From Escherichia coli (GTDB lineage Bacteria > Pseudomonadota > Gammaproteobacteria > Enterobacterales > Enterobacteriaceae), in NCBI RefSeq assembly GCF_003334385.1, contig NZ_QOWN01000146.1: a DNA stretch of 755 bases, one strand, 5' to 3'. Shown here in pieces: positions 1-710 of this stretch (positions within the stretch are counted from its first letter, which is position 1; each line of letters begins with the position of its first letter). The notes beneath the pieces were generated by a model. The model ran no database searches, had not been told where the DNA came from, and saw only the letters and a program-made list of their open reading frames with translations. The translations under genes and the position numbers were made by a program.

Positions 1-167
1 CACCGGGGTTTACCGCGTTAACGGAGCGCGGCGTTGTCCCCTCATGGTCGCTGGTCCGGTGCGATGGTGGAAGAAACCGGACGATGTGTTACCTCGCAAG
101 CTCTGTTATGTCATGTGTCTGATTTGTGATTTAAGTCGGATAATTGTCGTTGCCATTAAACAGAGGA

Positions 168-198
168 TTGATGACCGACAGGGTGGCATTGTTAGAAT
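168..198 (+). promoter_or_regulatory. Candidate sigma70 promoter for the lipoprotein gene: extended -10 TGtTAGAAT (190-198) with a weak -35 TTGATG (168-173)
   Basis: TG at 190-191, one nt, then TAGAAT at 193-198 (5/6 to TATAAT) fits the extended -10 pattern TGnTATAAT. TTGATG at 168-173 matches TTGACA at 4/6 but the spacer is 19 bp, which is suboptimal. The predicted transcription start near 205 would leave a roughly 20-26 nt leader before ATG 225/231. Pattern-based only; other weak -10-like hexamers exist (GATAAT 138-143). Confidence 0.3.
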
Positions 199-210
199 AA
201 GACTTATTCT
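194..210. promoter_or_regulatory. Perfect 17-bp palindrome AGAATAAG-A-CTTATTCT overlapping the candidate -10 and transcription start; possible operator for a dimeric regulator
   Basis: Arms 194-201 (AGAATAAG) and 203-210 (CTTATTCT) are exact reverse complements around a single central A at 202. The element overlaps TAGAAT (193-198) and the predicted start site, the usual position for a repressor operator. The matching regulator is unknown. Confidence 0.3.
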
Positions 211-230
211 TATCTGTGCCGGGAATGAAA

Positions 231-284
231 ATGAAAAGAAATCTTCCGTTAATTATTTTGTTGTCTTCTCTGGTTATGGGCTGT
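231..284 (+). other. Predicted lipoprotein signal peptide and lipobox (signal peptidase II type), ending at the lipidated Cys codon
   Basis: Translated N-terminus M-K-R-N then LPLIILLSSLV then M-G-C. Position -3 is V and -1 is G, matching the lipobox consensus; -2 is M, which is atypical but tolerated. Cys codon TGT is at 282-284. If the start is 225 the peptide gains two residues (MKMKRN...). Confidence 0.6.
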
Positions 285-557
285 ACGCAACATAAAACAG
301 ATATGCCCCGACAGTTGGTTAAGGCATTACCACAATATCCGGCCTATGCAGCGGCAAATTATATAAAGGGACGGGTTGATGTGAAGTTTGATATTGGTGC
401 TGATGGTACTGTCACCCGAATTGAGTTTATCCGTTCAGAGCCGCACCATTTGTTTGATGAGCAGGTTGTAAAGGCGATGGCAAAATGGCGATTTGAGAAG
501 GACAGGCCGTGTAAAGGCGTGAAGAAAACGTTTATCTTTAGTCCTTCTGCACCCTGA
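231..557 (+). CDS. Small lipoprotein with a TonB C-terminal-like domain (stand-alone TonB_C paralogue)
   Basis: Frame is open 216..557 with TGA stop at 555-557. Candidate starts are GTG 216, ATG 225 and ATG 231; ATG 231 is preferred because the GGGA/GGA at 221-224 sits about 6 nt upstream, while 225 and 216 lack a usable Shine-Dalgarno. The N-terminus MKRNLPLIILLSSLVMGC has a basic n-region, a hydrophobic core and a lipobox-like VMGC with Cys at 282-284; Thr at +2 means no Asp inner-membrane retention signal. Residues from PQYPAYAAANYIKGRVDVKFDIGADGTVTRIEFIRSEPHHLFDEQVVKAMAKWRFEKDRPCKGVKKTFIF (about 330..554) align gaplessly by eye to the E. coli TonB C-terminal domain as I recall it, sharing PQYPA, G-V-VKFD, DG-V, AM--WR-E and P--G. 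GC is about 43%. Confidence 0.8.
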   Translation: MKRNLPLIILLSSLVMGCTQHKTDMPRQLVKALPQYPAYAAANYIKGRVDVKFDIGADGTVTRIEFIRSEPHHLFDEQVVKAMAKWRFEKDRPCKGVKKTFIFSPSAP

Positions 558-710
558 TTATTTCATCAGAAATTAATTATCACTCTGTTGTTATTCTGTA
601 CATCCCGGCAGGGTAAGTCTTGTTCCGTCGGATATGAAGATGAAATATTGTTGGAGGACAGTGGGTACCTGCTCCTGTAACCGAACGTTCATTTCTCGTT
701 ATTTTTCATG

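Follow-up and report, generated by a model that had tools for sequence, protein, structure and literature searches.

A candidate structured RNA element and an optional TonB-domain lipoprotein cassette at a mosaic junction in an Escherichia coli lambdoid prophage

The closest described counterpart of the locus analysed here is the phage moron, with lambda bor as one example (Juhala et al. 2000, cited in PMC4104026; Cumby et al. 2012, PMC3594210). Partial parallels are offered by the prophage small RNAs AsxR, AgvB, Pas and STnc100, which belong to the pR' moron site upstream of the lysis genes (PMC4104026; bioRxiv 10.64898/2026.05.13.724894), and by Cor of phi80 and N15, a small phage-encoded outer-membrane lipoprotein that inactivates FhuA, a TonB-dependent receptor (PMC11436027). 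Here we consider a 755-nt stretch of E. coli DNA (hereafter the window; contig NZ_QOWN01000146.1 of assembly GCF_003334385.1) whose GC-rich left end is the 3' part of a conserved element of ~181 nt, probably a structured RNA, and whose AT-rich remainder carries an optional cassette encoding a lipoprotein with a TonB C-terminal domain. Positions refer to the window unless prefixed by L001, which denotes the surrounding 40.7 kb (mean GC content 53%).

Like a moron, the cassette is extra DNA between parts that are adjacent in a close relative, has a base composition unlike that of its flanks, and carries a promoter-like signal and one envelope lipoprotein gene in the late region beside the lysis genes. 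Unlike a moron, it has no terminator that we could find, and its empty form is probably a deletion derivative; the expression from the repressed prophage that marks morons would here be putative. Nor does it encode the same product as lambda bor, since its protein is a TonB C-terminal domain and not of the Bor/Iss type. The predicted RNA, for its part, would share with the pR' small RNAs a conserved position in lambdoid prophages and a non-coding nature; those RNAs, however, are 50-100 nt long and have terminators, whereas the element spans ~181 nt, lies downstream of the lysis genes and has no terminator.

The composition step and the junction at 82/83

E. coli chromosomes contain the window at 100% identity, within a lambdoid prophage in which lysozyme is followed by the Rz-type lysis protein, a 74-aa open reading frame (ORF), the window, HNH endonuclease, terS, terL and capsid. 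The window itself comprises a 230-bp gap, a plus-strand gene annotated 'TonB family protein' and the 3' end of a minus-strand YlcI/YnfO gene. GC content falls from 62.0% at positions 1-100 to 37.4% at 101-215; it is 43.9% or 43.4% in the lipoprotein coding sequence, counted from 216 or from 231 respectively (both to 557), 25.0% at 561-600, and 45.6% over the entire window. The four values that a first-pass annotation of the window had given for these segments agree with our measurements. The step is real and unusual: a single maximum-likelihood change point falls at 63-83 and was as strong in just 14 of 2000 base shuffles, and although 100-bp GC content in L001 has a standard deviation of 7.4 percentage points, a step of at least 0.246 between a 100-bp and a 115-bp segment is found at 0.15% of L001 positions.

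Comparison with other phages places the boundary precisely. Local BLAST against Shiga toxin 2 (Stx2) phage 1717, phage 434 and phage JLK-2012 recovers a common block from window -99/-97 to 81/87 at 83-96% identity; homology to all three ends there and restarts only within the YlcI/YnfO gene, at 735-755. In the phage collection, 164 records match the window, most of them over 1-81/87 only. We gathered 120 loci from IMG/VR by a 25-nt core of the conserved block, and in the 72 unique copies among them the commonest allele has a frequency of ~0.9 at positions -97 to 82, as against ~0.5 beyond either side. The true boundary is window 82/83, a universal mosaic junction that coincides with the change point and lies ~18 bp to the left of the limit at 100/101 drawn by the first-pass annotation. 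Downstream of it we find at least 15 unrelated classes of DNA, some with lambda-type cosQ/cosN within ~35 bp, and the step at the junction amounts to 0.14-0.34 with AT-rich cassettes but to 0.05 in the empty form described below. Among 5426 complete E. coli genomes, 1615 match part of the window and 414 match at least 80% of it, a disparity that marks the window as a mosaic.

The composition step is almost certainly a mosaic junction within a lambdoid prophage, at which an element of the phage backbone meets an optional cassette, and we hold our explanation of the step, taken as a whole, with considerable confidence. As such, the GC step is ordinary phage mosaicism.

That the cassette is optional can be seen in three loci (L058, L082 and L086) in which the conserved block directly abuts a full-length YlcI/YnfO gene. 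These loci are 97-98% identical to the window locus up to 83 and again from 679, with a 9-bp overlap, so that the unique part of the cassette (84-678, plus strand) is exactly absent and the window locus holds 604 bp more, one repeat copy included. The cassette occurs in 417 of the 5426 complete genomes, at 484 places, all of them chromosomal. Its GC content is 42.2% over window 84-683 (reckoned to just beyond the right repeat), with 40% in the 5' part, 43% in the coding sequence and 41% in the 3' part, compared to 59% in the RNA element, 50% in YlcI and 55-60% in the structural genes. GC content at third codon positions (GC3) is 0.41 in the lipoprotein gene versus 0.53-0.66 in Rz, lysozyme, YlcI, HNH, terminase and capsid genes. 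The E. coli genome averages ~50.8% GC, and the lipoprotein locus, at 37-42% as against ~51%, is AT-richer than its host, as DNA silenced by H-NS would also be; silencing itself, which the first-pass annotation raised as a possibility, is conjecture.

Several suggestions made in the first-pass annotation can be judged on these grounds. Its AT-rich insert beside GC-richer DNA is borne out on the AT-rich side, where the comparison among strains that it proposed reveals a cassette exactly missing from closely related phages; the GC-richer neighbour, on the other hand, turns out to be phage backbone and not host DNA. A host averaging near 43-45% GC with the locus in conserved synteny, which it named as the finding that would count against an insert, is not what we see, for the local 40 kb stand at 53% and the locus is not syntenic. 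The search for integrase, tRNA or direct-repeat boundaries that it advised yields little: the annotation has no integrase or tRNA near the cassette, and there are imperfect 9-bp repeats only. The left copy (AACCGGACG, 75-83) was placed by where homology to the empty-site loci ends, and it shares bases with the final helix arm of the RNA element; the right copy (AACCGAACG, 679-687) lies 1 bp from the YlcI/YnfO stop codon. No terminal inverted repeats, such as those of insertion sequences or miniature inverted-repeat transposable elements, were seen when the cassette ends were compared by eye. The tRNA genes that L001 does contain, tRNA-Ile and tRNA-Arg (L001 12804-12965), lie ~7 kb upstream of the window near the Q region, downstream of a DNA methyltransferase gene.

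How the empty form arose bears on the history of the slot. It reads ...AAACCGAACG, and its ACCGAACG has an A in place of the G found in every other class, which disrupts a helix pair that those classes retain. Because this pair is otherwise universal, secondary deletion is favoured over a pre-insertion site, and the more likely, and the simplest, history appears to be that the 9-bp repeats recombined and the cassette was lost. The direction of the indel is ambiguous all the same, and if the empty form is secondary, the original acquisition event is not what we observe; both points count against our account of the step as a whole. A second allele of the cassette, 70-75% identical, occupies the same left junction in PhiR63_2 and PhiR57_1, phages with lambda-type Nu1/A terminases, which argues that the association between cassette and element is old.

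The slot itself, from window 83 to the YlcI/YnfO stop codon (689), conforms to the classic picture of a site where morons insert. It has at least five alternative contents (L005, L009, L022, L030, L071, L002, L125), and the alternative cassettes have a GC content of 31-37%. One type carries a gene for a DUF1398 protein of the YbcV/lambdap78 kind, to which YbcW/lambdap79 may be added, as it is in lambda and DLP12; another has a hydrophobic ORF of 45-49 aa; phage 1717 retains a 206-bp remnant, and in other loci the slot is empty. The YlcI/YnfO (DUF3950) gene that closes it enters the window with its 3' end on the minus strand (689-755, the gene continuing to 889; L001 20689-20889; NF041551, 35.3 bits against a cutoff of 30; phrog_949). 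The ~15-22 C-terminal codons of this gene vary by phage class, with forms of 66, 64 and 52 aa, while the N-terminal ~50 residues are conserved; as the variable tail adjoins the slot, recombination there rewrites the end of the gene.

The GC-rich side and competing accounts of the step

The conserved element is sharply bounded (window -97 to 83; L001 19903-20083), both of its ends being universal mosaic breakpoints, and its plus strand is the strand of the late transcript. RNAalifold, applied to 50 unique copies, predicts helices that are kept in essentially every sequence. We wrote this structure out, turned it into a covariance model and aligned 65 copies to it (57 distinct), including those of lambda, DLP12, 933W-type phages and P13374. 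The 5' part of the model, which lies outside the window, is a long hairpin of 7 bp, an internal loop, 11 bp and a tip. The 3' domain occupies window 1-83 on the plus strand (model positions 98-181, 92 bits) and includes a hairpin at 13-31, in which CCGCG at 13-17 pairs with CGCGG at 27-31. All five of its pairs are changed on both sides in some sequences, with variants such as CTGTG/CGCAG in the 434 type and CACGTT/AACGTG in L081.

The end of the domain could form an H-type pseudoknot (47-82, plus strand), with stem S1 at 47-51/61-65 and stem S2 at 54-60/76-82. The two stems can coexist only as such a pseudoknot, and the element ends at the last S2 pair. Pair changes were scored across the 57 sequences: in S1, G-U becomes C-G in 13 of the 57 and U-A becomes C-G in four, and in S2, G-C becomes U-A in 12 sequences and G-U in nine. 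Note that S2 was left out of the covariance model, so that its counts are not fitted. The predicted geometry, with a 2-nt loop 1, a 7-bp S2 and a purine-rich loop 3 of 10 nt that connects the stems (GGUGGAAGAA), would by inference be feasible.

To what extent do these helices stand out from controls? Standard pairs fill 97.9% of cells in the alignment, compared to 37-59% when pairing partners are slid by 1-3 columns; changes on both sides are seen at 12 pairs, compared to 3-6 with slid partners; and the covariation score is 0.134 rather than at most 0.046. On none of five measures did any of 500 shuffles equal the observed value. The signal is also confined largely to one strand, with G-U pairs at 15 pairs on the plus strand and at one on the minus strand, and a consensus fold energy of -40.1 on the plus strand and -23.0 on the minus strand, column shuffles giving -22.5 +/- 4.0. 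Within window 1-83, 81% of paired bases are G or C compared to 43% of unpaired bases, and the high GC content of the window's left side can be attributed to these G-C-rich helices. The patterns of substitution suggest that the element is probably a structured RNA of the plus strand. Against Rfam 15 the window gives no match at E<=1, and neither does L001 19000-21700 at E<=5.

A number of observations caution against this reading. The fold of the single sequence is no better than that of shuffles on either strand (z ~0), although this comparison is uninformative for RNA so rich in G+C. The copies compared are closely related and were collected by an exact 25-nt core, so that few independent substitution events underlie the counts. 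Helices 1-4/66-69 and 5-7/39-41 are invariant and are therefore unsupported by covariation, and the 3' domain has diverged in lambda and DLP12, where the model scores 94-99 bits as opposed to ~220.

Of the accounts that compete with ours, the one that survives best builds on these doubts: the element might be a neutral linker copied among lambdoid phages by homologous recombination, its helices a by-product of high GC content. Mosaic breakpoints on both flanks and the unremarkable fold of the single sequence are what one would expect in this scenario. If the helices were incidental, however, we would not expect compensatory double changes at 12 pairs or five covariation measures in excess of both controls, nor so strong an asymmetry between strands in folding energy and G-U pairs. 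Whole hairpins, moreover, have been swapped for other sequences that still pair (L017, L081 and 434). We regard a neutral linker as unlikely, and a structured RNA as the better description of the element.

A second possibility, somewhat less probable still, is that the step marks the edge of a genomic island, the GC-rich 5' end being host core and the AT-rich lipoprotein locus an acquired island silenced by H-NS. It is true that the AT-rich segment is optional among strains and that its GC content falls below the E. coli average, but both sides of the step lie within the prophage, the cassette ends lack an integrase or tRNA gene (the tRNA genes of L001 being the pair ~7 kb away), and the GC-rich side is phage backbone, present in 398 of 50,697 phage records. 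These comprise Escherichia, Stx-converting, Shigella and Salmonella phages, lambda and 933W-type phages among them. In complete E. coli genomes the element is found in 1911 of 5426, at 4552 places and with up to nine copies per genome, and it is annotated in no RefSeq E. coli genome.

An improbable reading of much the same rank, perhaps slightly weaker, sees in the GC-rich block what is left of a small protein-coding gene, or its 3' end, conserved under coding constraint; the gene would be that of phrog_6954 (81 aa), which bears the label 'Rz-like spanin'. Fragments of ORF in two frames do match phrog_6954 (E=4e-14 and 0.003), and the annotation of VT2phi_272, a phage of the 933W type, includes the ORF uninterrupted at 81 aa. 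Yet this ORF, which runs across the element, is intact in the 933W type only: frameshifts or stops interrupt it in lambda (31 aa), P13374 (a 13-nt deletion), 434, 1717 and the window locus, while the helices are kept, and the substitutions preserve pairs and tolerate G-U on one strand. We rejected the protein-coding reading because the ORF is broken in most lineages. That the step is a fluctuation of chance or codon usage without structural meaning deserves next to no credence, for although short windows do fluctuate, steps of this size and change points of this strength are as rare as stated above, and the step coincides to the base with the homology breakpoint and vanishes in the empty form.

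Having weighed these alternatives, we return to the element as a structured RNA and ask where it sits. It always follows the lysis cassette, along with accessory genes such as bor or KilA-N where these are present, and precedes the terminase small subunit gene or cos by 0.1-1.5 kb. In 933W-type phages and P13374 it lies 110 bp before terS. The copy in lambda (NC_001416, 46868-47034), which the covariance model finds complete but divergent at its 3' end, precedes lambdap78, lambdap79, a YlcI-like gene and cos, and that of the K-12 prophage DLP12 (NC_000913.3, 579009-579176) lies between borD and ybcV; BLAST finds no copy in the Qin prophage of K-12. A search of the literature for a small RNA between bor/Rz and the terminase genes returned nothing relevant.

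Its position, its strand and its lack of promoter or terminator signatures lead us to propose a role in cis: the element would be a structure that serves processing or stability of the long late mRNA from a place before the morphogenesis genes. In full, the proposal is that an undescribed structured RNA motif of ~181 nt, with a long 5' hairpin in two parts and a 3' H-type pseudoknot, belongs to the late mRNA in most lambdoid phages, that its last base pair is a universal boundary of recombination and a hot spot for moron insertion, and that it acts in cis, through RNase processing, stability or insulation of lysis mRNA from packaging and morphogenesis mRNA. We consider the chances of this fuller proposal to be about even.

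The cassette and its TonB-domain lipoprotein

We lean slightly towards the view that the cassette is transcribed independently, on the strength of a sigma-70 promoter-like site at 171-198 on the plus strand. It was located by consensus scan and consists of ATGACC, a 16-nt spacer and the extended -10 sequence TG-n-TAGAAT. Alignment to the diverged allele shows that ATTGT(T/C)AGAATAAGAC is conserved, as are the ribosome-binding site and the start, in an otherwise diverged 5' region, and this retention of the -10 stretch argues that the predicted -10 element may be functional. Two points weigh against independent transcription. The promoter-like site, its TG aside, matches the consensus at just 9 of 12 positions, and the cassette may simply be read through, given that we find no convincing intrinsic terminator after either the lipoprotein gene or YlcI/YnfO. 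The spacer between these two convergent genes (558-688) is AT-rich, with 25% GC at 561-600, and is likewise without a canonical intrinsic terminator.

Overlapping the predicted -10 element and the likely start site is a palindrome read directly from the sequence, AGAATAAG-A-CTTATTCT (194-210), whose 8-bp arms are perfect. Only the window's allele has this palindrome; the 72%-identical allele does not, and it also lacks the next 13 bases on the 3' side. The palindrome could serve as an operator, or could form a hairpin at the 5' end of the RNA. Control of the TonB-like gene through a Fur box was considered and rejected, the best match having 6 mismatches and 79 of 500 shuffles doing as well. 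Within the lipoprotein coding sequence there is also an antisense promoter-like site on the minus strand (358-385; TTCACA, a 16-nt spacer and TATAAT), a consensus match only, at 11 of 12 positions. Spurious intragenic promoters are frequent in AT-rich acquired genes.

The gene product is a protein of 108 aa (231-557, plus strand; WP_000828068.1, annotated 'TonB family protein') in which a signal peptide is followed by a TonB C-terminal domain. Its N-terminus reads MKRNLPLIILLSSLVMG-C18, and a lipobox, LVMG-C18 with the cysteine codon at 282-284, was recognised by eye under a PROSITE-type rule and is kept as LAVG-C in the 72%-identical allele. The domain matches Pfam TonB_C (PF03544; E=1.6e-14) and TIGR01352 (54.5 bits, cutoff 27.1), and residues 26-104 align to the C-terminal domain of E. 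coli TonB (1U07, 2GSK, 2GRX; E~1e-15). The phage protein thus keeps the C-terminal domain of TonB with its PQYPA motif and its C-terminal strands. It fails the full-length TonB equivalog models, at 49-74 bits against cutoffs of 265-448, and has neither membrane anchor nor proline-rich rod, which tells us that it is not a TonB. Whereas E. coli TonB has an N-terminal transmembrane helix that couples to ExbB/ExbD and a proline-rich spacer, the phage protein has a lipoprotein signal peptide in their place, and without the coupling helix it cannot transduce energy. All homologues in a collection of 5.8 billion proteins are from E. coli and fall into two alleles. As a member of the moron class the lipoprotein is uncharacterised, and a search of the literature for prophage TonB-like lipoproteins returned nothing relevant.

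What might such a protein do? Under the Lol rule, the residue at +2 after the lipobox cysteine sets membrane sorting, and the threonine found there would send the lipoprotein to the outer membrane, beside the TonB-dependent receptors. A tethered TonB C-terminal domain that is not energised might then occupy the TonB boxes of these receptors as a decoy, and with the boxes occupied, TonB-dependent entry of competing phages and colicins would be blocked. There are precedents of two kinds. Llp of T5 is a small outer-membrane lipoprotein that inactivates FhuA; the phage protein resembles Llp and Cor in being a small prophage lipoprotein with a proposed part as receptor blocker, but it is unrelated to them in sequence, and its proposed target is the TonB boxes of many receptors rather than FhuA itself. 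Secondly, a periplasmic TonB C-terminal domain without anchor is said to inhibit FhuA- and FecA-dependent transport, as reportedly described by Howard et al. in J Bacteriol in 2001. The phage lipoprotein would be a natural form of the same anchorless architecture, although those dominant-negative fragments were engineered and soluble, whereas it is predicted to be anchored by lipid.

We put forward exclusion by TonB decoy as a tentative idea, and one that we think more apt to prove wrong than right. It draws solely on domain homology and reported precedents, and the residues equivalent to Q160 and R166 of TonB are leucine and tyrosine in the lipoprotein (residues 33 and 39), which also tells against it. 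Q160L is reportedly a classical tonB suppressor of TonB-box mutations, and the leucine at the equivalent position may bear on binding specificity.

In PHROGs the lipoprotein family is labelled 'Rz-like spanin' (phrog_1267), as is phrog_6954, and the label also appears in some GenBank records. Neither product resembles a spanin, and the labels were probably carried over from a position beside Rz. Two further genes in L001 deserve mention. The 74-aa ORF after Rz, upstream of the window (L001 19662-19886), also has a low GC3 (0.43); its match is confined to positions 100-172 of the 291-position phrog_2571, and the ORF might represent a truncated gene or an accessory one, a further piece resembling a moron. 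Further upstream, a prophage gene annotated 'cell envelope integrity protein TolA' (L001 13244-13672), another envelope-related accessory gene, sits in a stretch of 39% GC.

Implications for lambdoid phages and their hosts

The lipoprotein gives E. coli a natural anchorless TonB C-terminal domain, present in ~8% of complete genomes, many of them with relatives of Shiga-toxin phages. If it is true that this protein blocks TonB-dependent receptors, superinfecting phages and colicins would be excluded by a new kind of mechanism, at an inherent cost to iron uptake.

The most novel result is the unannotated, probably structured RNA element, which appears to be undescribed. Supported by covariation, it is present in lambda and in thousands of prophage copies at a hot spot of recombination and moron insertion, where it provides a precise landmark for annotating the accessory slot between the lysis and packaging modules. 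The element is also a candidate, and one that can be deleted, for how the long late transcript is organised. If true, a structured cis-acting element would add a functional part to those known in the best-studied phage.

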